DNA of 64,000 nt. It comes from Candidatus Omnitrophota bacterium (GTDB lineage: Bacteria > Omnitrophota > Gorgyraeia > Gygaellales > Profunditerraquicolaceae). Below, in pieces: positions 39,901 through 63,900 of this stretch. The stretch covers positions 5,302-69,301 of the forward strand of contig JAQUOV010000003.1 in assembly GCA_028716965.1 (NCBI GenBank), written 5' to 3'. Below the pieces are notes generated by a model. The model had not been told where the DNA came from and did no database searches. It worked only from the letters and a program-made list of their open reading frames with translations. The position numbers and the translations under genes were made by a program. The stretch's first letter is position 1. Each line of letters begins with the position of its first letter.

Positions 39901-42900
39901 ATGAAACAAATCAGCTATGTCAGGGTGAATATACCCATACCTGGCAAGCAAAAACAAATCGTGGATATTCCTTAATGACGCCTCGCCTATTGCTTCATCA
40001 TCCGCTTCATGAAGATAGATGAAATAATCAGGAGTTTCAGTGGTATACAGCATTACGGTATAGAGGTTATCCTGAGTATCAACCGAAAATTCATTTCCAG
40101 GCTGTTCATATTCCATGATGGATTCCCTTATGTATTGCGGTAGGTCTTCCATGTCGATCCTGAATGCCCGTTTCCCGTCTAAAGGAAGCGCCCGCGGGTA
40201 ATCTCTCTTTAAAGGAACACCCTTTCCTTTTAAAATGTTTAAATGGTCAAAAAATTCACTTTCAAAGATAAGGCTTCCCGGATCTTCTCTTATCTCCTGC
40301 CATTGGCGCTTTATCCTTTTAAGAAACTTTAGGGCAATAAATTTATTCTCCCTTGTCTTTACCGCTGTTGTCCTCCCCATATTCCTAAATAAAACACTGC
40401 CTTTTAATTTCTCCAGGAGCGCTGCGCTATTACCCAATAAAGGCGGCTCCTGGGATTTAAACCGTGGACCAGGTACGCTCAACGTGCCTAGTGTCACCGG
40501 AGGAGAATCCAAAATGCACCTTTCCGCGATCCGGCTGAATGTATTAGGACTGTCGCCGTTGATGGTAAAAGCGATGCGGAATAATATAAAGGCTTTTTTT
40601 ACAAATGGATGTATCTTTAATCCTGTCCTGGATAAAACCGATAAAAATGATCCCAACCTGGCGGCCGGATAGGCATAATTGTCTTCTGATGAGCGCGCAA
40701 TCTCTTGGGTAAGTTTCTCCTGTAATCTGTTATTTATATAATTCACCGTCTCATGCAATCCCGCCTTATTTTTTATCTTTTCAGCCAAGATCTCAAAGAA
40801 AAAGCTCCTATATTGCGTGTCTCTAAAGAAAATGAATAACTGTATTAAATCATTGGAAAGATAGGTAAGGAGGCAGGATGCCTTCAAATCTGCTTCGTCT
40901 TTTAATAGGAACATAAGATTTAAAAGATAAGAATAGATGTTGTCGGGCTTAAAGCCATATTTATCCGCGCAAAATTCTACTAGCAGCTCCGGAATATTCT
41001 TGATCCTTGCAATCAAACCTCTTCTCAACAGGGATTCTATCTTCTGAATATTAAGTTGCCGCACTGACCAATCGCAATTACAAGAATTTTTAATAAACTC
41101 TTCCGGAGAGAATGAGATTTCTCTTTCAGATGCGAATCTTTCTTCAGCCCTTTCTTCAGCCCGGTATTTTAAAATAAGCTTGCTCGCTATTTTTTCTTTC
41201 GGGATTATTCCTGATTGGAATAAATAATTTGCTACGGCTGATTTACGCGCCCAGGAATGCCCCCCTGCGCGCTGGGAATCTCCTGCATCGGGGATTAAAC
41301 GGTTCAGGTTTATTTCCCTTTTTAATCTTTGCCTTTCTTCCTCTCTGATCAATCCGGCATCGTTGAGATATTTTATTGCTTCAGCGTTCCTGACCCAAAT
41401 ATAAGAATCTGCCTCGTTTAATCCGGTAATTAAATCAGATAAGGGAATTCTTGCATACATTTCTTCTCTTTTTATCAATCCGGCCTCAACAAGGTAATTT
41501 ATTGCCTCGGCGTGCTTTGTACGCTCATCAGGATTCCCGGAGTTTAAACCTGCGCTTAATTCTTCCAGGGGGATCCTCCCTTCCAGCTCTTCTTCCCGGA
41601 TCGTCCCTGCGGTAAGCAAAGAATTTACCGCCTTGGCGGTTAGGAAGCGGATATGAGGCTCTTTGTCGCTTAATCCGGAAATAAAAATATCCAAAGCTGT
41701 ATAATAAAGATACGCCTGTTGCAGGGTGGCTTCGTTCAGGAATATGTCTTTAACCCAATCCCTGAGTGCTGCGGATTCTCCCAGCGCAGAGGCGGCACCG
41801 TAACTCTTGGTTCCTAACCCTTGGCTCGTAAGCAGCCTGTTCTGTGTCAAAAACTGGGCTTTTTCATTAGGATGTTTTCTTATCCCAACTGCCTGCCAAG
41901 GTTGGACAACGATACCTTTCCCGCAGCTGTACAGAACAAAAGAAATAAAAGGAGGCTCAACTTTATTTTTTATATACTTTCTATAAGATGGCATACCCGT
42001 ACTGGGTCTACTGAAGGTCGCCCTGATGCAATGCCGGAATTCTCTTAATAAGCCGGCTTCCAATTCTGCGACTCTATATAAAATATACCGTTTAGCCGCC
42101 TTGACAATTTCTTCTTCTATTCGCGCAGGAGGAATACTGTCTAGAAATAGGTTTCTTCTTGCATGCTCAACCCATCTTTCAAAACCGGCAGTCTTCTCCA
42201 GGTGCGGATAGATTCTTTCTTCTACAATACACAACTGCTCTTCCAGCTCTTGCTCATACTGTTTATAATAAAATGAAATAGCGACTATGTTAAACAAATC
42301 ACGATATCGTTTTTCCTGCACCATTGCCCTTAAGCTACGAGTATATTTTTGCGTTCTTACGCGCGGAGTTCCATTTACCCTTTCTGTTGTTGCGTCGGGG
42401 ACTACCAGGTTTATTTTTATCCCCGGAGGGTATATATCCTTAATTTCTAAAGATAAGTTATGAAGATTGCCAAAAGTAGCCTCTTCTGCCAAATCTGCTT
42501 CTGAAACCGGTAAATTCGGGTTCTTTACCCCTCCCCACCCTAAAAGAAGTTCTATCGGTAAATTATCAGCGGCTATTGCCCTTATTCTTTCTATGATTTC
42601 TTCCCGGGACATCTCCGGATGTTTAGGACCCGTCCTATACCTTCTAGAAGTAAATATCGTATATATTTGTTCGCATGTTTTTTCTAATGCGGACACTATA
42701 GGTGATCCACCGGGAATCTGCGTAGAGGCACCAGAACCACAAACATAGGGCAGTTGAATTCCTCTGCAATATACTTTAAATATTGAGACAGGAAACTTCA
42801 CTTGACTTGACCAATAAATTCCCCACGGGATAATCCCGAATATCTTTTTTGGCTGCCACTCTATAAACTGAAACCTAACCCACTGTTTGAGCTCCAGCTC

Positions 42901-45900
42901 TACTATCCCATTATCTATCTCTTCCACTGAAGAAAATTGTATTAAAAAGGTTCCACTATCATACCGAAAACCTTTGTGCCCATCTCCGACAACCTCCCGC
43001 GCTTCTTTTATTGGAATACCTTCATTTATCTTTAACACCGTAACGTTATCAGCCGGTATATTTCTTCTATTAAGCTCATTGCGTAATATTCCAGCCAATC
43101 GGGCTAAGTCTTCCTGCGTGTTGGAAATTCTTGGAATGTAGGAAGAAACATCCACTTCTGATTTCATAGGAGGCAAGATTCTACGATAAAGATTCGCCAA
43201 TAACCCTAACGGCGAGGCGCAGGAAAATTGAGCAAAGTGCTGTTTTGTAGATTCCCATCGGCTCACGAATTCTTCAGGTAATATTGCCAATACTTTCCGC
43301 AAATATTTATTTTCCTGTAAAATATTTAAAAATGCGCTGGTTCCCGATAATACCGCTTCTTCAGTCAAACCCAACTCTCTGCCTAAATGACGTACTCTAT
43401 TTTCCGATTCTTTTGGCTCTAATATAATATAAGTTGCCGCCTCGTCAACTGCCCTTAAGAAATATGCCTGCTCTTCGATTGCTTTGCGCAGCGTCAAATT
43501 ATTAGTTAAATCCAAAAATGCCCTAATCTGCATTTCCTGTTCCGGTGTCATAGGATAATCAGTGCTACGAACCAGGAATATAATACGATTAATATCTATT
43601 TCCAGCTTCTCCAATAATCTACGGATTTCCCCACTCTTGGATAAATATTCTATGGTATTAGCGACTACCGGCTTAGAACCCTGCTTCCTCCCCGGATGAA
43701 GGTCATGTAATAATCCGGCTGCTCCCATTTCCAGGATACACTCAACAGGATACCCCTCATATTTAGAAATAAGAACAGACAGATAAGATGCTTCTAAGCT
43801 ATGGCTAAAGGTATGATAACTGTGGATAAGCCAGGTGTCTTTATCATATTCAGCTTTCACAAATGAAAATAACTCATCCAGATAACTCTGGGCTTTGCCT
43901 GACAGATTAAGGATTTCTTTTATGTTTACCCACAAATCGCTTTGTAGCGGCGAAGCGACAGTTCGCTTACTTTCCCTTGCTTCTAAACGGTTAAGGTTAA
44001 TCAACAGGTTTTCAATTTCTGCCTGCTGGCTGATATAAACTGCTCGGGCCTGCGGGTTAAGAATATTTACCTGCCCATAAGGCACCATATTCGGCAGATG
44101 CTTGCGGTAAACTGACTCGTGAATATACGGAATAAAAGGCATCCGTATTTCAGGCATTTCTTTAATCTGGCAAAACTGCTCCAAGAACCAAAACCAGTTA
44201 AAATAAAATTCGCGTATATCGTCCTCTAATTCATGCAGGCGGCGCGCTGCCCAATATGTAAAAATACCTTCTTTCCAGCTAACCATAATTAAAGGAACTA
44301 ATAGGTCTTCCGGTAGGTGCATAACAGGTAAATTCTTGCAGCGCTTAATAACCTCATCCCGCAGCCCCTTGAATAACTCAATAAGATTCTTTATCCTTCC
44401 CTCATTTTCAAATTTTACCAATACAATACCGGTAAATGCGAGCATTTGAAATTTGGCATAGTTTCCCAAATCATATATCTGGGGAATAGCTTCCCTGACT
44501 AAATAGTTGCCTAATTTCTCATGATTAAATCTGGCAAAGAATTTTTTGATCAGCTTAGAATGGTCAACTAAAAATATCCCTGATAGTTGTGCTTTAACCT
44601 GTGGATAAGACGCCCAGGCACTCATTAAAGTTATATCCCCTTTACCCCCCATAATCGGCCCAAGATATATCCTGTCCGCATTTAAGATAACAAGAGAACC
44701 GGAATCAATGGCTGAAGCAAAAACTGCCTTGTAAGCATTAAGCAATTGCAATTCAAATGTTTTAAGCGGACGTTGCAGCTTTCCCGTGAGACCAAAGGGC
44801 AAATTCTGCAAAAGGGTATTTTCATCTTCATTGTCGGCTAACAAACCTATAATTCTTAAGTCTTTTACCATTTTCCCGTTGAAACTGCGGAATTCTTCCT
44901 GATCGCTCATAAAACTTACCTGCGAATCGCCGGATAGCCTTTCCATTAAAACTGTGGCAGGATCATCAAGGTTAACCTGTTCAAACAGTTTCAACATGCT
45001 CAAGCCGTTACCTTTACCATAGCCATGCATAAAAACAACAGGGACATCCTTACGCCATAGAACCTGTTTTGTCTCCTGTAATAAATCTTTCAACAGATTC
45101 ACGCGCCCAAGGGGGTTGCCTGCCATTACAAGAATAATATCGGCGGCTGGCTCGCCATTGTTCATTTGAGCATCGCATGCTTCCTGCATCCTGTGATATT
45201 CCTCATTGCACATCTTTTGCCTGAAATCGATTCTTTTGTCAGACTGCGCCGAAGAAAACAATCTCAATCTCCTTTGCAGCATTCCCGCTTCTATTAATTT
45301 TGACTTATAGCGGAAACTGGTAAAATCCCATTCGAGGAATATCCAATGCATTACCATCGGAGAAATAGATAAAATAATCCTCCACCAGTCGCTTAACAAC
45401 CTGATATTGCCTAATTTGGGGACAAAGAGTTCATACAATAACACCGCGGACAATATGCTAAAAATCCTGGAAATCGTACTGCGGTACGGCCATCCTTTTC
45501 TCCAGCCTAAACGTGATTTCTTGGTTCCAGAAAGATAAAAATCGATATATTTCTGAAGGGATAAACGGATATCTTCGGGATTCGGGTATAATCCCGGGAT
45601 AAGCCGATTACCTAATTCCATAATAGAGCCCGTTAATTTCTTTAATTCTCTTTTATTTACAAACGCATTGAGGCTTATACCAAAAATCGATCTCATTACC
45701 GGCATTAATCCCAGAATTTCAAAAATGCTCCACGGCACAAGTATATAGCTAGGCACACCTTCAATATTGCCCATTCTATGCATAGCCCAGCTGTAGCTAA
45801 GGCTATACCCCCTTACAACTCGCAATACATCGATTTTTACCTGTAATCCCCTGCGGGTAGATTCGGGAACGGAGAAATTTTTTAAGTAAGCCTTTATTTT

Positions 45901-48900
45901 ATATACAGCCTTTAAGGCAATTTCATCCAAACGCCTAAATGCCGCCTCCCTTTCCTCCTTTACCGCATCTGTCATTTGCGTAGAGAATACATTCGCAGCA
46001 ATCAAACCATTTATCAGGGTAAGCATTTCCGAAATGCTTCTTTCATGGAGATTGGTGATATCGCTGATATGTTCTTCGTAATAATCATTTACGAGCTTAA
46101 ACGCCATATTTTCCTCTATAATATGTTGTGTTTGCAGCCTGAACATTTCTCTAATCCTGCGGCCTGTCTGCCAACGCGTATAGACGCAGGTTGCATAAGC
46201 AATAAGGATAACAATACCGAGCTTTATCTTTAACGGGATAACCCCGAAGGATTCAGCCAATACCCCGATAGCGCTATAATCTTCTACTAAATCGCTGGCT
46301 GCCCAGCTAACTAAAGGTATAAACAATAGAGAGGAAATTCCCGCTATGAAAATAATACTCCAATTCCGCCATCTGCTTTCCAGTATCCTTTCGGCTAAAC
46401 TAAGTGGCGAGGCGGCAGGGCTGTTAGGCGGGAATCTTTGCCACCTTTCCCAATACCGTAAAGGATAATAGATATTCTTCCTGATATAATCATATGGTGG
46501 CTTGCGGCGTAAGATATGCTTTTCAATGGATGACAAAAGATGCGGAGCCAATATCTGCTTAACCCTTGCTAAGTTATATTTATCGGCTCTAGCTACTTGT
46601 TCGAAAATAAAGGTATTCAAGCGGCCCATTGCGCCTTTATTTGTTCCTAATATCACTGACGTCTCAAAATCTATAACATACGCCTTTGGTGCCGAAGGAT
46701 CACCGGCCATAATATTTCTCCATTTGTGAAGAGAACCATGCGCCACTCCTTCTTTATGCAATTGCCCTACAACCCGCTCCAGATTTTCCACAAATTCAGA
46801 AAAATAACCTGAATTGCCTGCCGGATCATCCCTCGTTTCCTGAAAAACATCGGCCAGCGTTCTGGCTTCAATAAATTCAATGTCAAATACCCTGTTATTA
46901 AGCACCCTGAGTAGGCCAGGAATCCCCTCTAAGCCGCTTAATCTATTTAAAACAGCCACTTCTTTTTTGGCTAATAAAACAAAAAATGCGTATTTTCTAA
47001 TAAATTTCTCTCCATCCGCTTCATATAATTCTACCTTCGCCTTGAAATCTTCACAAATCAATCTAACTGACTGCGTATTCACCGGAGAGACGGGCTCAAG
47101 ATAAGCAGGACTGGAGGCCTTACGCTCCATGCCAAAACCCGCCACATAAGCACCCAACGGCGAGGAGGATAGGTAATCTAACGAAGAAATAACTGCAATT
47201 AGAGGCTCATTGGTCAACGAAGTATATTTGACAATCTTGGCCATATCTTCATCCCCCGAATAAGTGGCTGTTTTTCTTACCGTGGGATAGCCGGCTTTTG
47301 CCGTTAGCTTAACAAATTGTCCCGGTGAACGCCTGGTGATTAAAACAATTTTCTTACCCGGAACTTCGCCGGAATCATAGGAATATACATTCATTTCCAT
47401 CCCCTGACAACACAGTGAATCTGCAAGATTGCTGTAGAATTCCATAAGCCATATCTCGGAATAAGGAACAAACACGGTGTTTATGATAACTCCGCCATCC
47501 TGAAGCTGATTAACCAAATTACACCATGCTTTTAAAGGATCATTCAGGTATCTTAAAACAAAAAAAGCCGTTATCAAATCCATTTGTCCGGGAAGTTTTA
47601 TGCTTGTGATATCTCCCGGTATGAAATTAAACGGCTTATACTCTGAAAGATAAAGTCGCACTTCCTCCATAGGATATACTTCTTTTATTTCCTTAATTTC
47701 TCTCTCGCTTAAGTTATTACCATTCCAATTTATAACGTCAGCTCCGTAACAAACCAAATTATCCCCGAAAGAACTCTTGGCTCCGATCAAAGCCCTGCCT
47801 ATGCCGCATCCGGCATCCAGCCATCTGACAAAGCGCCTTGAAGTTTCCCTGTTTAAATATTCATTTAAACAAAAATCAGCGCCTGCCTCTTTTAATATTA
47901 AATCGTAAGTTTCTAAATCCCTGGATTTTCTTGTGCGCTGGTGGATTAGGCCCTGTTCAAATATGAGGGCTCCTTCCGGGGTCGATGCTGCAAAGAATTC
48001 CAGCAAAATTCTGATGGTAAGAAATAGTTGTAACGGGGAATAAAGGATGGATTGATCAAGATAGAGAGTTTTCTGGAACGCGCCAAAGAATAGATCAAAC
48101 GGCCCTGCCCTAATTCCTCCGGCATCAGCTAAGAATTCATTTAATTTAAACACCAATTCATGTCTGCCTGTTTCATTTAATGATGATTTCAGCGGCAGAT
48201 ATATGTCACGTTTCAATATCACCTTTTCTGAGCCGGTTAAAGGCCGTAACAATGCCGCGTGCGTTTCTATTTCGTAGCTAATTTCTTTCTCTGTCAGGGG
48301 CCATCTTGTTTTTGAACGCGCCGGGGCAAAAGGAGAACAAGTCAAAGCTGAACTAGCGCTTCTTGGTTTCTTTTCTCTCAAATTCCCGGTACCATTGTTA
48401 GAAAAGTCTTTATCGGTAACTTTATACAGGAAAATGAATGACGGGATGCTGGCTAATGCGGCTACCAATACTATGCCTTGCAAAGAAAAATTCGCGCTCA
48501 CCAGGATAAACGACAGGATGGTGCCAAAGATCCCCGCCGCTGCATCTATTGTCTTGCCTAAACCAAAAGCAGCTCCGGCTTCTCCTTCCGATAGCGAAGC
48601 CATATACGCCTTCTGCGTTGTAGAGCGCATGCCCAGACCGGTTTGGTTGATTATTTTTGAAATGACGATCATCAGGAAAATTCCCGGGAAAAAGGCAAAA
48701 ATGAATGTCGCCACCGAATAAAAAAAGTATCCTGTACATATGAATGCTTTTTTGGAAGCGAAACGCCCTGAAACATATCCGAAGATTAACTGTGAACAGG
48801 AACCGATAAGGATAGTTATGGCGGTAAAAATACCCATCTTCATTGCCGCCGCGCTGAAATTATGCATAATAAAAGGTATGACTGGAGAGACGATCTCCTG

Positions 48901-51900
48901 TGAAAAACTCAAGAAAAATGAGGCCATCCCAAGCCGGCAGATATTATAAATTGAATCGGGGTTGAACCTGCCATTGGGACAAGCATTATTTTTCAGCCAT
49001 AACCATGGCGCTCTCCAAAAATCAAAAGGGGAACGGTCTTTCCCGAGCCCCTCTTTCCTTATCGCGCTGGAGGATACATAAATACCCGGGGTCGCCGCAA
49101 ACCTATCAATAATCTCCTGGTATGCCTCTATTGCCAGGAACCTTCCGTTGCTGCCGTTATCAAAAACCTCCCCCCTCTTGTTCTCTTCTTTAAGATATAG
49201 CTCGAGGTGCTTAGGCTTAATGCGCATTTCTTTATCAATGAGGCTTATTCCCCTGGCTGTAATCAGCAGTTGCCGTTTTAACAGGTAACTTGCCCGGTCG
49301 ATTACATCGCGGAAACTCCCCTGGACATGCTCAAGTTCAAGATCAGTACGATCGCTAAGATGCGGCATAGCCGGTACAAATGTGTTTAAGGTAGAAAAGA
49401 TGCCTTTACGCTGTGATTTCCTGTCCAGTTTGTATAAAGTGGAAAGGTTATGAATTCTATCGCAAAGCTTAATAAAAAGCGCGATCGCAGCTTCATAGTC
49501 CCCTGTACGCGCGGCCTTAACAATCCGCAGCAGATATTCTGCTTCGCTTTCGCCCGGTTTTTTAGATAAAAGCACAACTATCCTGTAAAGCTCGGGGAAT
49601 TCTCTGCGAATCTTCCGCTTAACGGCAACGTAGTCTTCTCCGGCATCTTCAAGCGCGTCATGCAAAAAAGCCACTATTATCATGCTTATTAACCCGTCTG
49701 GGCTAACAATTACATTAAACCCGAAACGTGATAACACATTTCTGGCGTACAAAAGTATCTCGCTTGCTATCTCAGCCACCCCGACGGGATGCCAAATATA
49801 AGGAGTTGTTCTATCTCTGCGCGCCAAGCTCAAGTGTTTTTCCGCCACAATTTCCAGGGCTTTCTTAAGGCTATCCCTGTCCCCGGGCCGCAAGTTAATG
49901 CCTCTATCCCTAAGCAGCGATAAAAACCTGTTTAAAACCTTATCTACAAGGCTGCCGCGGAATAAATCAATAGTTCCGCAATCTTCCTGCCCGACCTTCT
50001 TCTTGAGTTTCTTCTCAAACCGTTCAAGATTAAGGCTATCGGGAATCTCTAATTCAAAGATAAAATTAACCTTATTCCTTGTCCCGGAGATGCGGGGAGT
50101 GAGAAATTGTGATATGTTAATCCTGTTATCTTTAAAAAATACGGCGATTTCGCGTAAATTTCCCGGCCGGTTCGGCAGAGTAAATTCCAGCACATATGTC
50201 TTGTATTTGCATTCCTTAAGTTCATCCTCATATTTTTTGTCGCGATAATCCTTTACTTTCCGTAGCTCAAACAGGATTTCATTCAAAAGTTGTTTTTTGG
50301 GAAATTCAAGGCCCAATGTTAATATACGTCCGGCACTGCTTTTCTTCATTGCCATAAAGGTACCATTAGCTTTATCTCCGATCTTGATTAAAATATCAGC
50401 AAGAAGGCCCGGGCGTTCATTATTAAACTTGATTTCAACATCCCGTCCCCATTTCTGCGCGGATTTTTTCCCAAACCGCCACTTTCCCTGAATATGCCTT
50501 GCCTGCACATATGGCACTTCAACAAAAGTCACGGGAGAAGCTGCCTTTATCCGTTCTTTCGGCGGCTTCGGATTGCTTATGCTGATAACAACGCCAAAAT
50601 GCTCTAATACGTAATATAACTGCAAAGCCCCGAATACTTGTTCTAATTTACTCCTGATATCCGTATTCGGCTTCTGCGCCTCAATAAACAGCTTGAATTC
50701 AGCCAGCGTAAGCTCAATGGTAAAACCCTCTTCGCTATATTCATATCGCTGGCGGAGCTTTCGCCCTTCAATGGAAATAATATTACAATCCCGCCTATTG
50801 GCAAATGCAACCAGCTTTTTTATAAGGTTCGGCTTGCCATCCTTTGATTTATCATGTTCGCCGTGGATAGCCACATTGTTAACTACCCTCAGGAATTCAT
50901 CATCCCGGTTTAAAATTCCCTTTTTTCTATGCGCCTCAATTAGCATTCCAAAAAGTTGCAATGCGATCTGGCCGACAAGATCCCTGAGCCGAAGGGTATA
51001 TTTAAATTCATAAAGCACTCCGCATTTACCGTCATCGCTGCACCTCCAGCCGTCGCATTCTATTTTTTTCTTTGTTTTTGGAAAAGCGTAGATTGTATTT
51101 ACCGCGTTTAAACCAAGTACCGGAAGGGATAAATCCAATGCCCTTACCGTATCCAGGAACTCAAAAGTGAACTTATAAACTCCGGAGACCTCCCCTAAAA
51201 TGCCTTTTACCGCGCAGGCATATGTATCATAGTAATTCTTAAGTGCTTTGCTCGATCTGTTGGATTCGCCGGGCTTTGCATTTCCTATTTCAAACATCCG
51301 CAATAATGTTTTCTTTACGGCATCGAATAACGCGCAGCGCCTCCTGATATCTTTATGGTGTATTTCCCAGATGCCTTCTGAAAGCAATTGGTCCAGCTTT
51401 CTCAATAATACGCCCATATCCGCCCTATCTTTAGCAAGCGGCTTCTGCCACCGCGGGATAACCGCCAGGCCTCCGAGCAATCTCTTTAACGCGTCGTCAT
51501 CCTTGGTGACGGCAATAAGGCCGAGAATCAGGCTGAAAATTCTTCCTTCTGAAATATTCAGGACGGTAAAACGAGGGATTAGGTCCTGCTCTATATAATC
51601 CTGCAATTCATTACTGATAACAGGATCTCCAAGCTCTATATTGTAAACAAGAGAAAACATCTTGGAGAGATCCGGTATCGCTTCCTCTAACTGCCGCATC
51701 CTGCCCGCAGCCGGATAATTGTATTTCTCTAAAGAAGATATGATACTGCTGCGTTCAGCCTGCGCCGACTTCAAAACAAAGATTACGTCACCCTGATGCG
51801 TCTGCAAAGATTGATTCATTGATTTATGTATAAAATGCCTTATGACAAAGGAGATAAAACCCGGATTGTTTATCTCCTCCAATGGGAGCACGATGCACAT

Positions 51901-54900
51901 TCTCTCCCTGCTTAGTTTTTCTGTTAATACAAAGATATCTTTATCCGCAGTAAAGACGACCCCAAACTCAAATTGAGAGCCAGTCGGTAAAAGGTCACCC
52001 ATCGCCTTCCTTTTTCTTAAAACATCCAAAGCCTTCTCTAATGTATCCTTGACCTGCGCCGCATCAAAACTACCTGGCTGCTCAATAATAATATCCCCGC
52101 CTTTAACATATCCGCTTACGGGAAAAATGCGGCTATCCAGGGTGCCTATTGCAGAAGAAGAAATCTTGATTAAATCCAAAAACCAATCATTCCTCACATA
52201 AATTTTAATTTTTCTTTCAAGCAAAAGTCCTGAATAATCAACCACAACGTCTGCCTTAGCAAGCTGAGCATTTATTAAAGGACCTTCTTCCATCTCCGAC
52301 CTAGCAAATACCTTAAGATTTTGAGTAAAGTTATAACCTTTATTGACGCGATCACGACCATCCCTTTTGTCTAAACACAACAAAGGCAAATCATCCACTC
52401 CGATTTTGATTATCATTAATTCTTCTATTTCTTCCCAAAGCCATGCGTAAATACCTTCCAGAACAAATGCGTAATAATCTTCACCATAATATGGTCCATC
52501 ATGATCCTTCTGCTGGGTCAGTTGAATAATACGCTGCAAATATACCGGAGTGCTCCCGTCCAATAAATCTAAGATTATGCTCCGCATCAATAGATGATCC
52601 ATCATATCGGCACCCTTAAGGCCTTTTTTCCTCCTTTCCTCCCGCAGAAAGAAATAATTATCGGTCTGTAATCCTAAAAACGGAAAATGGATTGTTCTTC
52701 TCAACATTCTTATCAACATCCTGAATAATTCGCTCTTTCCCGATGCCCCAAAGCCGGATATGCCGATCAGTCTCCTTCTATCCCCGGATTCAATTCTATA
52801 GCCGTAGACCTTTAACAGGATTGCACAAATATCAAGGATAATATCGCGAAGTTCGCCATAGAATAACTCAAGACGTGTTATACCTTTCTTAAGCTGCTGC
52901 ATCTTGCACTCAAGATCCAAAGGAACAGTAATCTCTCTCAGCAAAGTAAATTTTCCTGAATTCCAGTTACGCTCATAATGAGGTACCCAAATCGGCTTAT
53001 TCGTTTCTTCGTCAATAATTAGACTGAAATATTTGTTTACCAAGCCATTCGGCAGGCCTCTCTTCAATGCTGCTGAGATCTTCTCAGTCATAATCCTAAA
53101 AATATCGGTCTCCTGCGCTTCTTTGGAAGTTAAAAGATAGTAGTAAGTTCTCCGAATACTATTTATATCAGTTTTAGCACCGAACCGCGATTTAAGCACC
53201 CTCTCTAAGCTTAGTTTATTGTCCTCAAGGCCGCGATACTCTTGTTCCACTTCGGAAATATGGGATACCAACTTCAGCGAAGAAGAGGCAGTTGGAGAAA
53301 ACATACGGATATCTATGCCGAATTTATTTTTCATTTCATTAAATACGCTTTCCAGGATCTTATGGTTATAGCCCGTATACTTAAAGTATTTTTTCCCTTT
53401 AGGTGTAACTAATTCTTCTTTTCTCTGGGAAAAGTAGCCTAAACTCTTAAACGCCGAAGGCCAGTCTACATCGTAGGCGATAATGGTTGAAATACCATAA
53501 TCCAAAACCTGCTTAATTCCGATATAGCGCAAAGTTTCTTCCAAGCCCTTGCGCTGATATGAATCTTGTATATCCAAACTCAAAATCTCCTCCTCCGCCA
53601 TGACGGCAATCTTCTCATCGGGATAAATCCTGAAAATGCTTGTCCCAATCCTCCGCTCGCTAAAATCATCGTAGAGCACATCAAGAAAATGGGATACCGA
53701 TACGCGTGGCTCAATATCTAAAATATACTGCCGGACTATAAATATTGCTTTGGGACTAATTACAACAGCAAGGGCAGGACACTGCCTCAACGAAACCCAT
53801 TTCTTATTGCTTTTAGGATCTATAAGCGCAACGGCATCACCGGTAATTTTTACTTCCTGACTGATCCTCTCGAAGATTGTCTCAAAAGAAACATCTTTAA
53901 GAAGCGGCGCATAAATACTTGAAGATGCCATAAGCCCGTCAATAATCTCCTGGCGGACTTGCGCCATAGGAGAAGAGCCTTTAGATGTTGAGAGTAGTTT
54001 TCCGTTAATAAAGAAGTTACTGGCATTAGGCTCAGGCAGGACTATGAGAGGGAATTCGCTGCGCGCCCCTCCTCCTTCCCAGCCTCCATTCTCCGATTTC
54101 TGCGGCCAGAGAAAACTTAGAATATGCCTTCCCGGCTTTAGGCCAAAAAACGGGACAAAATATTTCTCCGCGGCCTTTCCCTGTAAGGCCGGGATAAAAT
54201 GTTCGTACCCGCTTTCTTTATCTTGCAAATAAACGATAAAAGGATTGTCGTTTTCTATTAGAAGGAGCTGATCATCCAGCAGTAGTGTCTCTTTATACCT
54301 GCTTTCTTCCCAATTCCATTCCACCAGACGCTCTCCCAAACGCATAAAAATATTGCGCGGAGTTTTTCCCGGCTCTCGCAGGCTCTCAGCAATCAGCCCG
54401 CGTTCAGGTTCTTTGACGGAAGGAAGAATATGTTTACGCATCCACTCTTCAGGGCTCTGCTCAACCGATTCAAACCGGTAAATACCGATTTGTCCGGGAG
54501 CCAATTCCGTTTTGAATATCGGCGTATTCAGGACAAGCTGCTTTCCAGTGATGAGTTCTTTAAAAACGAATCTATTGCCTGGATGAAGCCCAAACTTCCA
54601 GAAAGGCAGCGGAAATTCAACTGTCTTAGGTATGTTGCTGAAATTAACTACGATTAAAAGATTATTTCCTTCGTGCGCCTTGGCAACGCATAGCAGGCGC
54701 TCGTCATTGGTAAAAATACGGGTTGCTTCGGAATAATTTACCGCGGAATTGTTCTCCCTCACCCACACACACATCTTTATTAAATCCGAAAAGTCAAATC
54801 GACCTGCCTCCTCCGTTCCCCAGATTATCGCCTGGTCGCTTTCTCTTTTCCACTTTGCCGGTTCTATCGTCCCCAGATCGTCAAGACTGAATATTTCGGT

Positions 54901-57900
54901 CTCTAAGAGGGGAATAAGGAGTGCTAAAGCCAAAAGCCCGGGCCCTCCTATACGTATCGCTTCCCTCTCGTTCTGTTCTCCGGTCAAGTACTGCAATAAT
55001 CCGAGCATCTGCCTGAAGAACCGCTGGTGGTCGTGGTTGCCAACTACAGTTTCTATGGCTTTACGGGAATTCTCTATTAGGTCATCACAATATCTATCCA
55101 GAGTTTTGAAACTTTCCTCAATATGGATAAACGAATACTGGATAAATCCCAGCCAATCAAAATTTATATCGCCTCCCATCTGCTCTATAAGGGCTAAAAG
55201 GTTATTCTCGCGGAAATGTTCGGCAAGCGCCCCTGCCAACAGACAATGATTGTTATTTTCGGGTAACCTGCCATAATCAATATTCTTATCCCCGCAGCCG
55301 CACTTATGCAAAGCATCTATCCACCAGCCGCTGATACCGGGGCATAGTTTCGTCCAGTACTTATACGGTTCTATGCGAGGATCAGTCTTGCCTTCTGCTA
55401 CGAGCCGGGCAATAAAATTCTCATCCCATAAAGCCAAATCTGCCCACTCCTGGTAATCGATCCTGTCGGGGCTACGCACTATGCTCCCCGGGCTCTGTAT
55501 TTTTCCATCTATAACCACAAAGTAATCCGGGTTAAACTTCGCCTCCGTTCCCTCTTCTGAGGGATAAAAAGGCATAGTAGGTAAAATACGTATACCGTCT
55601 TTCTTAAGAGAATTCTCCATTTTATTTAAATTTTCTACTCCTACAAACTGTTCATAGAAAATAAACTCTTCCAATTCCGGATAACTCAAGGGCTCCCTGC
55701 CGAAATACCGTGTTTCTTTATAATTTATTTTATCTACACCGTAACCTTCCCATAGAGATATTCTTTCTTTAGTTAAGCAGGCGTATTGCCGTATTTTCTC
55801 AAATTCACAAAACCTCCTGAACGCCTCCTTCCTATCGCTTTCGGCAAATTGTTTAAAATGTTCAAACTTATCAACTGGGAATTCTCCTGCATCTTGAACC
55901 TTGTTCCAGTCTATTACTCCCGGGTGCAACGCATAGAAAGAAAGAGGCGCGAATGGGCTTGACCAAGGTGTCGGAAAAAATGGAGAGAGGATGAAGACAT
56001 TTTTGCCGGTTTTCCTGTTGAGCTGACGGATAAAATCCTCTATCTCCGCGAAGGTAGGAACCAGCCTATTTTTTATAGTGTAACCGGACGAATATCCGGA
56101 TGTAATGACATCCGGAAGGAAAACATAATACGGATGGTAAGTTTCCCGCTTGAGCCAATCAGGGACTGAATGAATGTGTATAGTAGCAATGGAATCCAGT
56201 TCTTTAGCCCAAGAACTCTGGTTCCTGAGCCAGGCATAAGCTTTGAAATTAAAAAACCCGCTCAAACGCTGGGGGGTGAGTTTTACTTGCGCGACAAAAA
56301 CCTGTCTACCTTGCTTATCTCTTTCCTGATAAACATTATCTGCTGGTGCAGTAACATCATACCAGGAGTCTTTATAAGGATTATCCATGTTTGTGCGCAG
56401 CGCAATCGCCAGGTCCTGCGGCCTCAAGCCATATCCGCTGTTTACCTTAACAATGATTTTAACCTCAAGGCTTTCTCCCAGTAAGAGCGGAATATAGCTT
56501 CCGGCAGACGGTTCCATATCCAATTCCAATGCCTCCAGAGGCACATCTTTACGCAATTCCTCTAATTCTTGAGGAAGCACCGCTGAAGACGCTCTCCCTT
56601 GTTCGCAATTCTTCCTCCCAAATAAATTACTGCCTCCGGATCTTTCTTCGGTATAGCTAAGCGCCCGCATCACTGCTCCTAAAAGATCCGTTGCGATGGG
56701 ACTGGAGGTAACCGGAGATTGCAGAGCCACGACGGTCAACGTTTTTAACGGTTGATCTTCCTGCAAAGGGGTCCGAGAAATTTCATACGGCAGCCCCTGG
56801 CTGTCTTTACTAATGCCTATTTTCACAAATCCTGGATAGTGCCGATATTCTTTCTGTCGTTTGGGATAAAGAGCCTCAAACAAGATACGGGGACGGGAGC
56901 CTTTTGGCAGGTCTATTACACGCATGCTCATTCCGTCTGCCTTGCTTTTCAAATACATAACGAATATGCGCCCTTTTAAAGAATTTCTTATGCGGTTAAA
57001 ATTCTCTTGCAGATTTGCAGTGAGAGGAATTTCATCCGCATAGAAAACCTGTTTATCGCCTTTCGATCGCTCATAAGGAAACTTATATAACAGATACGCC
57101 CAGTACGGAATTACCCCCAGCTCTTCCTCTCTCGGCTGCCTGCCGCTGACATACTTTTCATATTCGGCCGGCTCAATAACCACTATTTCAAACGGCAAGG
57201 GCTTTTTACCTTCCCTAAATGCTATCGCAAAGCTTAAACGAGTCGCTTCATATCCTTTTTTGGATTTGACCTGCGGCTTAGTTCTATACCGTATACCTTC
57301 ACTTTTAAGGTATTTGACAATTATTTCTTTTATTAAGTACCTATCTTTGGTGATAACACGCACCCCCATGATGTCAACAACCTTTCTTCGCCCTTCTTCG
57401 CGCAGCAGGCCCTTGCGTAAAATACTGACCGCGTCTTTTACTCTGCTTTCGATTTTTTCAACGGTAACCCCGGATTGCTCAAATTGAACCTGCAGTTGAA
57501 AAGAAAATCTCCGTAATTCATTCTTCATTTCTTTGCGGGAAAGCCCGTATTTTACTTCAAGATTTCTTTTAATCTTTCTATAGAGGGCCGTGTGTACGAT
57601 CTTAAAAGAGATACTCCTCATTTTTTCAAATAATATGTATTCGTTAAGGCGTGCCGACAAAGGTACAAGAACTTCTTCAATTTTCCTATAAGTATAACTC
57701 TTTTTCCATTTGGTCGCTTTTGTCAATGCCTGAGTTTCATCCCCAAAATCAAGCACCAGATTATCCGCATCTCCGCAGGACTGGATAACGGCATTCTGGT
57801 AATTCTGTACGGTATTGCTTCCTTCAATTTCAGAAATAATGCCTCCCACAAATGGCCACCCCATTGAAACCTTTTCCAGGATTTCAACCGAGGCTTTTAT

Positions 57901-60900
57901 CGCTTTCGCATCATATTCCCGCAGGTATTCAAGTTTTTCCCATTGCCTCTTAGCAAAGAATCCTTTGCGCTGCTCTTTTGTTAATTTATGACAGAGGGCT
58001 GCCAAAATTATTTTTACCGGCATCCTCCATATCGCTAAGGTCAAGGCTACCTTCAGGGCATGTTCAAAATATGTGTCCTTGGAAAGGAATGCTTTACCGC
58101 CGTACTCTTTTTTGACTGCCCAGGCCCCCGCCGTAACAGCCCTTGCCTGCGCAGGGCTATAGTTTACCCATACTTCTTTCTTCAGCCGTCTAAAAATACG
58201 CTCTTCCTTCGGAGTAAAAGAACCCGTGGAAAGGACAACTGGAGAACTACTTCTAATTCCCCTCTTTCGTTCCTGCTTAAACGAATCTATTATTTGCCGT
58301 AATTCCGAGGCGTCTGCCTCGCAAGCGCATTCAGGCAACACGAATTTACGCCACAGCTTACCCTCCGATTCAGCCAATAATTCTCTATAATGACTGACGG
58401 ATAGAATACGCTGGCGCACCCATGAGGCCGCTATTTCTTTAACCCCTTCTTCGGAGACCCCTTCATAGACGCGCTCTACATGATAATAGTACCCTCTTCT
58501 CACAAATTCCGTTGAACAGCTGACAAATCTAGGACAAGAAAAATCAATTGATTTGACCTCTTCTAGGCCTAAATTTAAATATTCATAGATAACACACTTC
58601 CCAGCTTGCGCTATTGCAGATGCAATAATCTTTTCAATTTCATCAGGGTTATTAGTTCCTTCCGCTATCTTCATTAAGAATTCTTTCAATATATGCGTAG
58701 AATAGCCTGCTTCAATTGCAAATAATAGATAATTTATGTACCTTTCTTTTGCCGCTATTTCGCCTTCTTCAAAACCGCTCCTTAACTTATTTGACTGCGG
58801 AATACCAGATACACGCTCTATGGTAGCAGCAAGGCCAGGGAATAAGAAAACAATAACCCCCGCTATTACTGCCAGTAAAACGTATCCTGGCGTAATATTA
58901 CAAATTTCAGAAATCGAACAAAGGTAATCAATAGACAGGATTCCGATACACCCCAAAACTAGATATCTGAGGGTATCAGAGGAAACCGGGCTGGCAGAAT
59001 GCTGCCTTCGCGGAAGCTCGCTTCTTTCAAGCCCTTCCATGACCATATCCGATATTTCTTCTGCAAAGATATCTGGATTACCGGCAATATGCTGCTCAAA
59101 AGAACGGGTGGATAAGATACTCATCCCTGTCCTATGCGCAACAAATCTCTTTAAGTTAGGATTGCCGACAAGGCACTCCCCGTATGGAACCAGCCAGCTT
59201 ATAACAGGAACGGGCCTCTGTTTCCCCGCTTGGCTATCTTCAACTGCCAAAGCCAGATCCGTGACAACAAATACGAAATTATTTTCCGATATTACCCCGG
59301 GCATGAGCCGGAAAATTACGGAGGGGAAATAATTGAACTTTATGTAACGTAATTGCGAAAGCACATTAAGGTATTCTTCCTCGGGGTCGAGAACTTCATC
59401 CGGATCCTGCGATGTTCTGCTTAACGGCTGATAAACTATTTCCGGAGTATAGGTTATATCAAACTTTGTTCTCGCCTTGCGATGTATGGCGCCGCATACT
59501 CTTTGCCTGTTTTCCCATAGAAGCGTTGTATCGTCTTTCGTGATAACCGCTATTGCCACCTTAAGGAATTCCTGACCTGATTCCATGGAATTGGGTAGAG
59601 CAGGACTGGATCCCCCCCTAGAGATCTCCTCCAACGCGTTGCGAATAATCTCAAACCCCCTGGCGACCTCCTTGGGGCCGATGTCTTTGCTTTCCAATAA
59701 ATCATCAATTGCAGCGATACCGAACCGTTTAAGAAATAACAGCTTGGGAAACAACCGCTTCTTAAAAATATATCCGTCGTCATAGTCGATATTACCTGCC
59801 AGGATTATCGCTTCCTGCAGCGCATTCTTATCGGCATCAGTGCAAAAATCATCGCATTCAAGCGCAACTCCATCTACAATATCCTGCAAGAATAGCAATA
59901 CCGTCTCAAGAGAAGTAAATGTGGTTATATCCGGATTATCTATGCCTGCGCCGACTATACCGATTATCTTTCCTTGGTATAATACCGGCCCGCCGCTTGT
60001 GCCGCATTCTGACCCGGTATCCAAACTCATACGCTGTTCAAAATGACCAAAGAGTATCTTTTCACCTGCCGATGCTATGCGCCCCTGATATAATCTCAAT
60101 GAATTTTTTCCGATTGGATATCCAAGGATAACTGCATGTTTTCCGCAAATAGCCTCTTTAGATACCAATGCCGCGTCTGCCAAAGATATAGTCCGTGTAT
60201 ATTCTTTCGCTATCCCCTGCTTTTTAATTCTTAATAAGGCTAAATCAACTGAAGAAGAGCGAAAAGTATCTGCTACGACCTCCGCCTGTACCTGTATCCC
60301 GTTCCGAAGCCTTACTGTGACATCGGGGTTATATTCCCTGCGTGTGAATGAAAATGGATTGGTTACGTGGGAAGCGGAAAGTATATAATAATGCTCCTCG
60401 CTTGCATGAAAGACCACCCCTGTCCCTTCTCCGATATCTGATATATCCCGTATCCCCAACTGCCTAAGCAGGAACCCCTGATCATCTTCTTCAATGCCGC
60501 CCCAGCCTATTCGGATCCTTACAACTCCATTTTGCATCCCCTTGATAAAAAACTTGGGGCCTAAATAATAAGCAGCCGTTATATTTGCCGGGCTGCCAGC
60601 GCTCCGTTTAGGATTTCTGGATATATCCCCTATCACCTCAATACTCATAGTGCCGGCAAGGGCTTTGCCCGGATTCAAAATTACGGGTGTTGCTTCTAAT
60701 ATTCTTTTCTCCGTGTATAGGTTAAACGCATCGGTAGCTGATGTCTGCGGCTCAATACAGATAGTATCCTTATCTGCGGGAGCATAAAATACAATATGCT
60801 TAAATACGGAGCTTTGGGTTACTTTGATGAGGATACCTTCGGCAGGATTATAGAGCAAAGATGTATCGTGGGACAAATCGGTAAAGGCATCATCGTAATT

Positions 60901-63900
60901 CAGTCCATTTAAATAGCGAAGATGCCCGAAATAAAAATCCCCTTCTGAGTAAACCGGAGGGCCGGTGGGCATCTGGTTGACGGATGGCCAGAGCTTTCTG
61001 ACCGGCAGCATAACCTGCCAATTTTGCCTTTGCGGCGTATTAAACCAGGGATGAAATGCCCAACTCATTAACAGAGGCTTGCTGTCAAAGCTTTTGACGT
61101 AAATAATAACGTCCAGTTTATTAGCTTTTAGCCGATAAGTTACTCTGGCTATGAATGCCCCAAAAAAATCCCTGATTGCCTTATGCGCCTGTTCTCTTGT
61201 GTCAAGAGAACAGCTGATAAACACTCCGCGGGCGTCTTTTCCCCATTGCCTGACTTCCCAGATGCGTTTACGAATAAGCCCATGGTAAATATGTTTGCCG
61301 CCGCGGATGTCATAAGTAGCTCCCTCATCTTCCAGACCGGACAAATCTACTATCCTGTCTTGTAAATCAATAAATTTGCTATCTCTAATCCTGTTCGCGA
61401 ATGGTCCCAGTATAGGGTTTCCTCCTGGATAAAAAAGTATCTCTCTGCCATCAACCATATAAGATATAGCCATTGCTCCTAGTCCAGGGACAATATCAAA
61501 TGAAGAGCCATAGGTTAAATCGGATGAACGGAAAATCCTCATGTTCATATGATTTTTGCGCTCCCACTCAATAAAAGTTTCCAAGCCCAAATTTGGCTCA
61601 TCCAATGGAGAAGAAACAGGTTCCTTATCAGCCCAAACCTGAAGCAATGTTCTGATTTTATTTATTCCGCGCGTAAATCCGTTCTGTTTTAGACTGTTCA
61701 TCTTTCTGACCGTCTTGCCTAATTCCAACAAAAGCAGCAGCAAATCCCTGGTTTTATCGCTATTACTATGCTTCAATACCATCTGACGTATAAAAGGGTT
61801 TTCTTCCATCTCCACTATCTTGCTTTTTTCACTAAGCATGCCATAAAGTTGATTTAATCCTTCCAGGTTAACTTTTTTTCCGTTAAAGATTACTGCCTCA
61901 AGAAGACTGGTTAATAAGTTCCGCATTAATCCTTCGATCGCTTGAATATCATTTTCAGAAGGCATTAGGCCGAGAAAATCTTGTTCGCCTATCCTGCTGC
62001 GGCTTAGTATCTTAAGCCTTGTTTCAACTATCCCCATTAAATCAACAATTCCCTCCCCGCGCTTAAGATAATCTTCCTTTAATAACCGGTATAAGTCAAA
62101 TACTTCATCTCTTTTAGATCTTCCCAATTTTATAATTAAGGAACGAAGAATTCCTTCCAGATCATTAATCCGGGAGGATAATAATCCTTCATTAATCCTT
62201 TGTTTTAGATTTCTCCATTCTATACGAAGCATTCTCTTGCGCAAATTTTCAATACTAGTCAAACATTCTATTTTTTTTGCAAAAACCCTTAACTCATTCT
62301 CAAGATTAACAAGATTGTCGCCTCCGGCAGGATGCGCCTGGCCTTTCATGATAAGCAGGCATCCCAACGGTGAAGCGGATGAATTTAAAGAGAAAAGGGT
62401 ATTAACGAGAATAAAATCCGCGGGGAGGTAAATATAAATAGGAAGCTTGCCTCCTTTTAGGCCTGAGGCGTACTCTTTTAATTCTGAGAGTCTGGAGACT
62501 ATATTTTGCACTAAATCCTGCGGCCCGTTTACCAATATTCCTGGTGTCAAGCCTATAAAATCAATTTCCGGCCTGTCTCCTATCGAAATTGCCTGATGAG
62601 CCCTTAGCTTAAAATATCCAAATGCATAGTTATGCATTAGCGGTGAGGGTTTGCCTATTTTTATATCCTGCTGGGTCAAAACCAGGCTAAATAGCTTATG
62701 AATATCCAACGCCCGTAATACATTCAGAGTAATCATCCTGCTATTGTTGCTTTCCATAATAAGGATAAATTCCCTTGATAGCTCTGCAAGTAAAGTTTTC
62801 AGCTCTTTATCAGGGCTAAAGTATTCTTTTGGGCGCAATTTCTTGCCCAACTCTTCAAAATAAGCATTTACATCCAAGCCAAAGAAACGCAACATCCCGG
62901 ACATGCTGTTTTTCTCAGTTTTTACTCTTTTTAAATCCTGCAATGTTACATCTCTTCTCCCTTGCCTGCGCAACTGCTCCAAGGCGAACTGGTAACATAT
63001 ATTCTTATTTGCATCGCTAAATTCCTTGTTCTTTATTAATGTGCCGCCCAGGTCGATGATCAACAGCCTGAAATCTACCGGAACAATATTAGCGCCGGCG
63101 GGCAATATTAGCGCGGAAGAACAAATTTTTCTTTTACCTATCGTGCCCTCCAAAACAATATGCCATCCTGAACCTTCTTTCTGCTCTGCGCTGAAATATT
63201 TTTTGAACCAGTTTTGGACTTTTACATTTGTCGTAAGGCTGAATATTTTCCACCCAAAATATCTTCCCTCAAGAAAAACCACGGTATTCTCGGTAATCTT
63301 AGACATAAACCCCTGATTCCGTAAGGCTATCTCTGCAATTGAACCGCTGCGCCCCAGCGTTCTTTTGCAGGAATTAACCCTCTCCTTATATAAATCTGTA
63401 TTTATATGGATAATAAACTCAAACTCTTCATTCTCTGCGTCACCCCGCAGAATCTTACGCAGATGCCATCTTATGCGCCAGGCCGCGTCAATAAGCATTA
63501 TATAGTCAACTTGATTACAACTCTGACTATGCACTTCCAGGGCAACAGCTAACAAAGTCTTCGGCGAAAATATCGATTTCCATCTTAAGGTTCTTTTCAA
63601 CTCTTTGCGCACATAGCGCAAGTCTCCGGAGATATCGGTAACAGGGACCGCTTTATCGTTATTCAGTTCTTTGAATGCCTCAAGTATTTCCTTGCTCCAA
63701 ATCCCGGACAGTTTTTCCACTGAAGTTCTAGTTATAGAAGATACCTGGCGACTTGCCAGCGCAGAAGAGCTGAATTTTATCAAAGAAAGGGCCTCCTGGA
63801 AAGAAACCAGGTAGATGTTGCCGCTTGAAGGAGATTGGGAAGGCAAATATCCATCTATAACGAAGATATCTCCTTCTACCCCCTCCCTTATAACCTCTCC

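Follow-up and report, generated by a model that had tools for sequence, protein, structure and literature searches.

A recurrent junction peptide links enzyme-sized modules and flanks an HtrA-like protease in a 15,018-residue Omnitrophota protein, a candidate polyprotein

Processing of multi-module bacterial proteins by an embedded protease is textbook knowledge for MARTX toxins and for TcdA/B. MARTX and clostridial toxins free their modules in this way, and the MARTX protease cuts after Leu in unstructured segments between effectors, with a small-Leu-small consensus (PMC2900308). Omnitrophota commonly encode giant open reading frames (ORFs) of 10,000 to 147,000 codons, and a 2026 preprint by Nielsen and Lui describes the Omnitrophota giants as multi-enzyme metabolic clusters (bioRxiv 10.64898/2026.06.07.730766). 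West-Roberts et al. (2023) proposed autoproteolysis of Omnitrophota giant proteins from C39 and S8 domains and called the cleavage points of giant proteins unknown (bioRxiv 10.1101/2023.11.21.568195). Whether such proteins act as a single chain or as cut pieces is an explicit question for the Omnitrophota giants. Here we analyze a giant ORF with an embedded S1 protease in a 64,000-nucleotide (nt) stretch of a Candidatus Omnitrophota genome (contig JAQUOV010000003.1, positions 5,302 to 69,301; referred to below as the window), in which a defined junction peptide makes cleavage directly testable.

The giant ORF (18892..63948, - strand) encodes 15,018 amino acids (aa) with zero internal stops, in agreement with the ~15,000-aa product read by an initial annotation of the window, and all long ORFs of the window lie on the same strand. 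About 24 distinct enzyme and regulatory domains (Pfam, NCBIfam) are tiled along it, drawn from many families with none dominating. They comprise a HAD hydrolase, aldose 1-epimerase, the S1 protease, RelA/SpoT, GH77, and uridine kinase; ACT, two HD-family domains, and half of an MFS transporter; several methyltransferases and Ser/Thr-kinase-like, DIT1/PvcA-like, and SidJ-like domains; two NadD modules, an NAD(P)HX dehydratase, and an APH-like kinase; and B12-binding with radical SAM and a response regulator. Hydropathy estimates add about 10-15 transmembrane (TM)-like segments. The neighboring MnmG shares 87-63% identity with ~70 Omnitrophota loci from metagenome-assembled genomes and ~50-55% with other phyla, and these identities place the host genome in Omnitrophota. 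Lying in an Omnitrophota genome, at least 10,000 aa long, and carrying many Pfam families and TM helices, the giant ORF is a member of the described class of multi-enzyme Omnitrophota giant proteins, and its product is multi-enzyme and predicted to be membrane-anchored. It shares with the published giants a length above 10,000 residues, many Pfam families on one chain (HAD, methyltransferases, HD, response regulator, and radical SAM), TM helices, and a unique sequence, and it differs from them in an S1 protease as candidate processing enzyme and in a defined junction motif. Whereas Archaeovorins carry C39 or S8 near the N terminus and SecA-related or dockerin domains, no C39, S8, SecA, or dockerin domain was found among the Pfam/NCBIfam matches of this ORF.

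Enzyme-sized modules follow one another in frame along the giant protein, linked by a short small-[A/S/G]-S-P-[L/V/A/I] peptide. Stereotyped linker peptides had been noted in the initial annotation, and they are more pronounced than it claimed. ASPLA occurs exactly five times, and ASPL is the protein's most enriched tetrapeptide, with 16 occurrences versus 0.3 expected (54-fold). The broader [AS]SP[LVIAM] occurs 31 times versus 1.8 ± 1.4 (17-fold; 500 shuffles, shuffle maximum 7), and the still wider [AGS]SP[LVIAMT], with 36 sites, holds about half of the protein's Ser-Pro dipeptides. The 13 neighboring proteins (5,911 aa) contain 0 occurrences of the motif. In extended form, the consensus reads small-[A/S/G]-S-P-[L>V,A>I]-[A/G/V/S], with K/R mildly enriched at positions -4 to -2; over 59 sites, the fourth motif residue is L in 33, V in 9, A in 9, and I in 5.

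The joints, all encoded on the - strand, fall between recognized domains: none of the 36 lies inside one (domain coverage, 27%; P ~1e-5). The next annotated domain usually begins ~5-40 residues past a joint, as for RelA/SpoT at aa 1922 after SSPV at aa 1901 (58237-58248), NadD at aa 8260 after ASPL at aa 8254 (39178-39189), and the response regulator at aa 13788 after the canonical ASPL joint at aa 13777 (GCC TCG CCG CTG, 22609-22620; 11 aa ahead of the module). Segments bounded by joints often match a complete enzyme in size; for example, the aldose epimerase occupies aa 783-1117, the response regulator occupies aa 13781-13917, and a methyltransferase occupies aa 13922-14175. The joints show no enrichment of internal translation starts (8 observed versus 8.7 ± 2.5 expected), and this explanation was rejected.

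One module is a protease, which together with both flanking junction peptides spans aa 1118-1450 (59599..60597, - strand). The initial annotation had placed a trypsin-like S1 protease with an intact His/Asp/Ser triad at 59899-60435 (- strand, aa 1172-1350), and this assignment is borne out. Trypsin_2 (PF13365) matches aa 1175-1331 with an E value of 1.9e-12 (48.6 bits versus a cut-off of 27.6), and Trypsin (PF00089) scores 21.7 bits versus a cut-off of 20.6; the closest NCBIfam model, an HtrA equivalog, scores far under its cut-off. Pfam, alignment, and model together delimit a catalytic domain at aa 1175-1338 (59935..60426, - strand), predicted to be an HtrA-like double beta-barrel. Its putative catalytic residues are His1194 (SASHV; 60367..60369), Asp1235 (VDLALL; 60244..60246), and Ser1318 (GTSGGP, as first annotated; 59995..59997), all on the - strand and all within the annotated interval. 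These three residues, Gly1316, and Gly1319 are unchanged across an 11-sequence family alignment; we take Gly1316 to be the Gly193-equivalent position, which contributes to the oxyanion hole in S1 proteases. A PDB search with the protease as a single sequence gave only a marginal trypsin match, and the family profile was needed to match solved HtrA, DegP, DegQ, and AlgW proteases (E ~6e-10, with identity of only 17-23%). In that alignment, the triad columns coincide with the AHV, DLA (DLAVLKV), and GNSGGP motifs of the HtrA-type proteases. The annotated position near the N terminus is right for the window ORF (8-9% of its length) and is not conserved, since in a related ORF described below (L088) more than 3,300 aa precede the domain.

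Modeling of the protease, which the initial annotation had proposed, gave a confident AlphaFold2 fold, with a predicted local distance difference test score (pLDDT) of 81 and a predicted template modeling score (pTM) of 0.84 for aa 1161-1400, and a pLDDT of 80, a pTM of 0.81, and a strand-rich core for aa 1105-1465. Per-residue pLDDT is 80-95 for aa ~1134-1446 and below 50 outside, dropping exactly at aa 1447, where the module flanks have almost no alignment depth. The top-ranked Foldseek matches in the PDB were MucD, HtrA1, Thermotoga maritima HtrA, and Deg8/9/2 (E ~5e-9), with a probability of 1.00 to HtrA, MucD, Deg, thrombin, and Spl proteases; a BFVD fold search returned generic chymotrypsin-fold matches only, the best being giant-virus HtrA-like proteins. 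The C-terminal ~100 aa (aa ~1347-1443) were confidently modeled as a helical bundle. This helical extension (aa ~1345-1445; 59614..59916, - strand; helices at pLDDT ~80-93) has no Pfam match and is conserved in the family, with the motif F/L-D-N-F-x-D-E-x-D-K-x-A-L. It sits where HtrA proteins have PDZ domains, and the protease module has zero Pfam PDZ matches. Judged from the aligned motifs and the predicted fold, the module at aa ~1122-1446 is a complete, PDZ-less HtrA-like S1 protease made up of a double barrel and a family-specific helical extension. It belongs to a separate PDZ-less subfamily of known fold, with the signature YYILSASHVTNP ... PDLS ... G[FY]SGGPV ... FDNFxDExDK(xAL).

The protease thus resembles HtrA/DegP/DegQ/AlgW/MucD (MEROPS S1C) in its chymotrypsin double barrel, its His-Asp-Ser order, and its AHV, DLA, and G-x-SGGP motifs. 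Its score, its triad order with G-x-S-G-G, and its two-beta-barrel fold place it in S1 Trypsin_2, and it lacks the PDZ domain of HtrA sensu stricto. Unlike HtrA/DegP, it has the ~100-aa helical extension instead, forms its own subfamily, and is one module of a 15,018-aa chain. Inspection by eye shows no evident signal peptide where the giant ORF starts. The modules flanking the protease are nucleotide-dependent enzymes, and they and a Sigma70_r4-fused relative encoded next to clpC suggest a cytoplasmic location, with topology taken from hydropathy only.

Searched exhaustively with HMMER, a set of 1.84 billion representative proteins yielded 56 matches to the protease, the best of them 44% identical. 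Zero matches came from a word-indexed protein search and from a genome-contig scan, both with the protease region, and a word-indexed search with the C-terminal response-regulator-methyltransferase segment gave generic response-regulator matches only. A metagenome scan with a 4-sequence protease alignment recovered the protease in two further giant ORFs, L087 (a 12.4-kb contig; 78% identity) and L088 (20.7 kb of a 62-kb contig; 68% identity), in both of which it also passes the Trypsin_2 cut-off. These two ORFs are absent from both protein searches, which therefore yielded no homologues in a giant-ORF context. Each is open in one frame and runs off its contig or locus ends, at more than 2,649 codons (L087) and more than 6,902 codons (L088); their conceptual translations are called t87 and t88 below. 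The 27 other metagenome loci (L089-L115) are uninformative and hold ordinary HtrA-like genes of 260-760 aa, with a single motif occurrence in 1 of the 27.

The window ORF shares modules with L087 and L088 in another order and with other neighbors. Window aa 59-556 correspond to t87 764-1260, and aa 1114-1503, with the protease, correspond to t87 1285-1674, the aldose-epimerase module being absent from L087. The protease-module blocks are 77% identical in L087 and 59-64% identical in L088, with different neighboring modules. The module at aa 6665-6914 (43207..43956, - strand), set between the ASPL joints at aa 6665 (43945-43956) and aa 6911 (43207-43218), recurs elsewhere in L087 as one 64.5%-identity block (window aa 6668-6915 to t87 3058-3305), and window aa 1447-1658 match t88 3956-4167 at 79% identity. 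In side-by-side alignments, homology starts or stops within ~2 residues of the motif, and 46% of high-scoring segment pair ends lie at most 10 residues from a joint, versus 5% for random positions. At the protease module, homology with L087 and L088 begins at the N-side joint (GSPA, aa 1118-1121; 60586-60597), where pLDDT is low, and L088 carries a ~310-aa insertion exactly between the module end and its SSPA joint, the counterpart of the C-side joint of the window (SSPA, aa 1447-1450; 59599-59610) at which model confidence drops. Joints also precede domains in these relatives, where a HAD domain lies between ASPL 982 and ASPL 1230, a response regulator lies 14 aa past SSPA 5476, and, in L088, Inositol_P at 4171 lies 10 aa past ASPA 4161.

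Could the giant frame be an assembly chimera or a decayed gene (a pseudogene), or could the protease be an inactive remnant? The empty word-indexed search and genome scan, the lack of a homologue above 44% identity in the exhaustive search, and one in-frame TAA in L087 would fit such an artifact. Against these stand 45 kb open in one frame and the fact that giant ORFs are a documented Omnitrophota trait. We consider an artifact extremely improbable, and it is effectively refuted by the invariance of the triad and its surrounding motifs across the family and by two independent metagenomic contigs with homologous open frames, one exceeding 2,600 codons and the other 6,900. The TAA itself (L087 7950-7952) splits that frame into same-frame halves of 2,649 and 1,455 codons and does not coincide with a junction motif; a sequencing error, a readthrough site, and a true gene boundary are all conceivable.

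The initial annotation also raised the possibility that the giant product is autoprocessed into many separate enzymes, and we tentatively favor such a polyprotein mechanism as the likeliest single reading of the locus. The embedded protease, probably cytoplasmic like the enzymes around it, would recognize exposed junction peptides and cut after their aliphatic residue (between A-S-P-L and A/G), first beside itself and then in trans. Such cuts would free individual enzymes or multi-domain blocks, some of them still membrane-anchored. The DNA consensus of the junctions, described below, would reflect identity by descent or microhomology, whole modules having been inserted, deleted, or swapped in frame between giant genes with their flanking sites retained.

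HtrA/DegP-type proteases prefer an aliphatic P1 residue, and a like preference is plausible here. Autoprocessing is plausible because the joints delimit enzyme-sized modules and the homology of related ORFs breaks at them; because the protease is the only peptidase domain detected in the window ORF, L087, and L088 and is kept in both relatives; and because the joints on either side of it (GSPA 1118 and SSPA 1447) lie in low-confidence segments at the module edges in the AlphaFold2 model and an aliphatic fourth residue fits the HtrA-type P1. The locus thus appears to combine an embedded protease whose active site looks intact with short conserved linker sites, including both flanks of the protease, where exposure is predicted. 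The junction peptide also flanks the protease in a distant member of the family (P0013/L116), a 565-aa fragment that runs off both contig ends in 61% GC DNA. The P0013 protease is 28% identical and has GSSPV on both sides and SSSPV further on (3 sites versus 0.24 expected, with mixed Ser codons), so that family and motif co-occur again. Ahead of the catalytic Ser, the window ORF and L087, whose joints are mostly x-S-P-L, have the loop DTGSECGTS, and L088, whose joints are mostly x-S-P-A/V, has GAYSKRGAS; this correspondence is a weak hint, as the sample is far too small for co-variation.

The initial annotation called a bacterial polyprotein strategy virtually undescribed, a view that does not hold given the MARTX and clostridial toxin precedent (PMC2900308) and the autoproteolysis proposed for Omnitrophota in 2023 (bioRxiv 10.1101/2023.11.21.568195). 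Like MARTX and the clostridial glucosylating toxins, the giant product is a large multi-module bacterial protein with an internal protease and short joints carrying an aliphatic residue. In contrast, MARTX toxins carry a clan CD cysteine protease activated by inositol hexakisphosphate (InsP6), whereas the one here belongs to S1; MARTX are secreted toxins of 3.5-5.3 thousand aa with RTX repeats and effectors that act in eukaryotic cells, whereas the modules here are mostly metabolic and regulatory enzymes; and MARTX cleavage is demonstrated, whereas here we infer it. Viral polyproteins (picorna-like 3C, flavivirus NS3, and sobemo/astrovirus serine proteases) are similar in having one ORF with protein-sized modules, a semi-conserved junction peptide, and a chymotrypsin-fold protease flanked by its own sites. 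The giant ORF differs from them in lacking specific structural affinity, in lying on a cellular chromosome among house-keeping genes, in being ten times longer, and in having shuffled modules. Text searches found no mention of linkers in either the 2023 text or the 2026 preprint, nor of motifs in the preprint. What appears to be new is a defined junction peptide and DNA motif, its match to module boundaries and shuffling breakpoints, and an S1 candidate processing enzyme.

At the nucleotide level, the 28 [AS]SPL sites of the window ORF and L087 (window 19078-62376) share the DNA consensus c-GCC-TCG-CCG-CTG-G, further examples being the ASPL joints at aa 13207 (24319-24330) and aa 13371 (23827-23838). 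The Ser codon is TCG in 19 of the 28, versus 10-15% in the background (for the window alone, P of at least 11 of 16 = 4e-8); the motif is preceded by C (p 9e-8) and followed by G (p 3e-8). The 13-mer GCYTCNCCGCTGG occurs seven times in the window ORF and three times in L087, every copy being in frame on the coding strand, with 0 occurrences in the window's other 18.9 kb and 0 in 434 kb of Omnitrophota mnmG loci. A genome-wide DNA element of the uptake or Chi-like kind was rejected, as neither the ordinary genes of the window nor those Omnitrophota loci contain the 13-mer. Joints of a second flavor, x-S-P-[A/V], use AGY Ser codons (TCC AGC CCY GCY, or GCA AGC CCG GTT); this flavor is dominant in L088 and accounts for seven sites of the window, and orthologous sites retain it. 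That one peptide is written with both TCN and AGY codons and at differing GC content (61% in P0013/L116) points to function of, or selection on, the peptide itself, and the consensus within each flavor argues that the joints are identical by descent or have undergone gene conversion or microhomology recombination. On the evidence of these codons and flanking bases, the junction signal is both peptide-level and DNA-level.

The DNA side of this signal also fits a rival reading, which we regard as possible if somewhat doubtful. Here the giant product would remain an intact scaffold, the protease would be a cargo or house-keeping enzyme (acting, for example, in quality control, in regulation, or in attack on prey or host proteins), the joint would be a Ser-Pro helix N-cap or hinge, and its DNA would serve as microhomology for in-frame recombination. 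A 13-14-nt consensus that is biased at synonymous and flanking bases, a 13-mer limited to the coding strand of giant ORFs, homology breakpoints at the motif, and two codon flavors that travel with their modules all favor it, as does the portrayal of these proteins in the literature as membrane-anchored multi-enzyme clusters. A DNA-only signal, however, needs no peptide shared through two unrelated Ser codon families or with a 61% GC lineage; a hinge leaves unexplained the 54-fold tetrapeptide excess and its absence from ordinary proteins; and the protease is among the few modules retained in all three related ORFs. A compound of the two readings seems to us rather unlikely: a cassette polyprotein with a junction on either side of every enzyme-sized module, which is cut as a peptide by the HtrA-like protease and is also, as a 13-14-nt DNA motif, the point of in-frame recombination through which giant genes gain, lose, and exchange modules. 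If true, it would join exon-shuffling-like evolution to virus-like polyprotein expression on a bacterial chromosome.

Several observations weigh against the autoprocessing reading. Proteases of the HtrA type are usually loosely specific and act by degrading unfolded proteins. The nucleotide bias extends to every synonymous position of the motif and to both flanking bases, which a cleavage site alone does not explain, and the DNA consensus could by itself account for the breakpoints at the joints. Some neighboring domains are left unseparated, with five domains at aa 8254-9882 that have no joint between them. The N-side protease joint in L088 lacks its Pro, and the AlphaFold2 model, with flanks almost devoid of alignment depth, puts neither flanking joint in the active site, which counts as weak evidence. 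Members of the protease family also occur in other settings, which likewise favors the intact scaffold: P0003 is a stand-alone protein of 245 aa; P0001 is a complete 2,849-aa HEAT-repeat protein with an N-terminal protease and two motifs only; and P0002 is a 741-aa fusion to the helix-turn-helix domain Sigma70_r4 that adjoins clpC and has no motif. The P0002 gene (L083/L084 10001-12226) lies between mcsA/mcsB, with a MazE/PIN pair, and clpC. In Firmicutes, CtsR belongs to a ctsR-mcsA-mcsB-clpC operon, and P0002 looks, by analogy, like a proteolytic regulator at the CtsR position.

The occurrence of the family in proteins without the motif also favors a further alternative, in which the joints are cleavage or recognition sites for another genome-encoded factor, such as a protease or a Ser-Pro kinase, and the S1 protease has an unrelated substrate. 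Such a factor would account for a peptide-level signal, the giant ORF itself carries kinase-like modules (aa 5650-5816 and the SidJ-like aa 7851-8078), and C39 and S8 peptidases have been implicated in other giants (West-Roberts et al.; bioRxiv 10.1101/2023.11.21.568195). We nevertheless consider it improbable, with no second peptidase in the three giant ORFs, no other peptidase in the 19 kb of neighboring genes, and the same protease family flanked by the motif in the distant P0013 lineage.

The junction peptide marks module limits and shuffling breakpoints and flanks an apparently intact protease, and it would offer a rule by which giant proteins could be divided into units for annotation and structure prediction. 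If cleavage by the embedded protease were confirmed, the locus would represent a chromosomal polyprotein system for metabolic and regulatory enzymes, well beyond toxin-type precedents such as MARTX.

The other joints of the window ORF are spread along its length. ASPL recurs at aa 525 (62365-62376), 5846 (46402-46413), 9882 (34294-34305), 10467 (32539-32550), 12353 (26881-26892), 13592 (23164-23175), 13918 (22186-22197), 14176 (21412-21423), 14189 (21373-21384), and 14954 (19078-19089). SSPL is found at aa 779 (61603-61614), 5595 (47155-47166), 11518 (29386-29397), and 11624 (29068-29079), and GSPL at aa 12982 (24994-25005) and 13769 (22633-22644). Joints ending in Ala are SSPA at aa 5612 (47104-47115) and 11644 (29008-29019) and GSPA at aa 12544 (26308-26319); those ending in Val are ASPV at aa 1652 (58984-58995) and 4470 (50530-50541) and SSPV at aa 10118 (33586-33597). 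SSPI occurs at aa 2415 (56695-56706) and 9896 (34252-34263), GSPI at aa 7081 (42697-42708), ASPI at aa 11839 (28423-28434), and SSPM at aa 3325 (53965-53976).

Among the modules themselves, the ~210-aa module at aa 1447-1658 (58975-59610, - strand) stands directly past the protease module in the window ORF, L087, and L088, and a diverged paralogue lies 10,000 residues downstream at aa 11627-11842 (28423-29070, - strand). It has no Pfam match, and its best PDB match is non-significant (E 0.29). Two NadD modules are encoded in the same polypeptide (aa 8260-8462, 38563-39171; aa 9479-9693, 34870-35514; both - strand) near the NAD(P)HX dehydratase module, together forming an NAD-related sub-cluster whose five domains have no junction motif between them. 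Half of an MFS transporter lies amid soluble enzymes (aa 5007-5192; 48373-48930, - strand), covering profile positions 2-189 of 347 with several TM segments. The SidJ-like pseudokinase/polyglutamylase module (39715-40398, - strand; NCBIfam NF033873, E 9e-15) and the Ser/Thr-kinase-like module (46501-47001, - strand) are effector-like enzymes, and the bacterium is presumably host-dependent.

The 13 neighboring genes are ordinary bacterial chromosomal genes, including mnmG, a class II ribonucleotide reductase gene, lacI- and ROK-family genes, glycoside hydrolase genes, a sugar ABC transporter, and a PilZ gene. An Rfam search of the whole window returned zero RNA families, a result that speaks against any known ribozyme or RNA element acting there as a joint signal. 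The giant ORF begins with a TTG codon, and in the start region (63949-64000) an AGGAG ends 2 nt upstream; the 33 nt directly 5' of the start continue its open frame as far as a TAA that lies 15 nt ahead of it. The homologous region of L087 has more than 760 further codons and an ASPM joint ahead of it. The window ends there, and its giant gene may follow another same-frame ORF. At the other end, the start of the downstream PilZ-domain gene (18183-18905) overlaps the last 14 nt of the giant ORF (18892-18905), which suggests co-transcription or translational coupling of the two genes.

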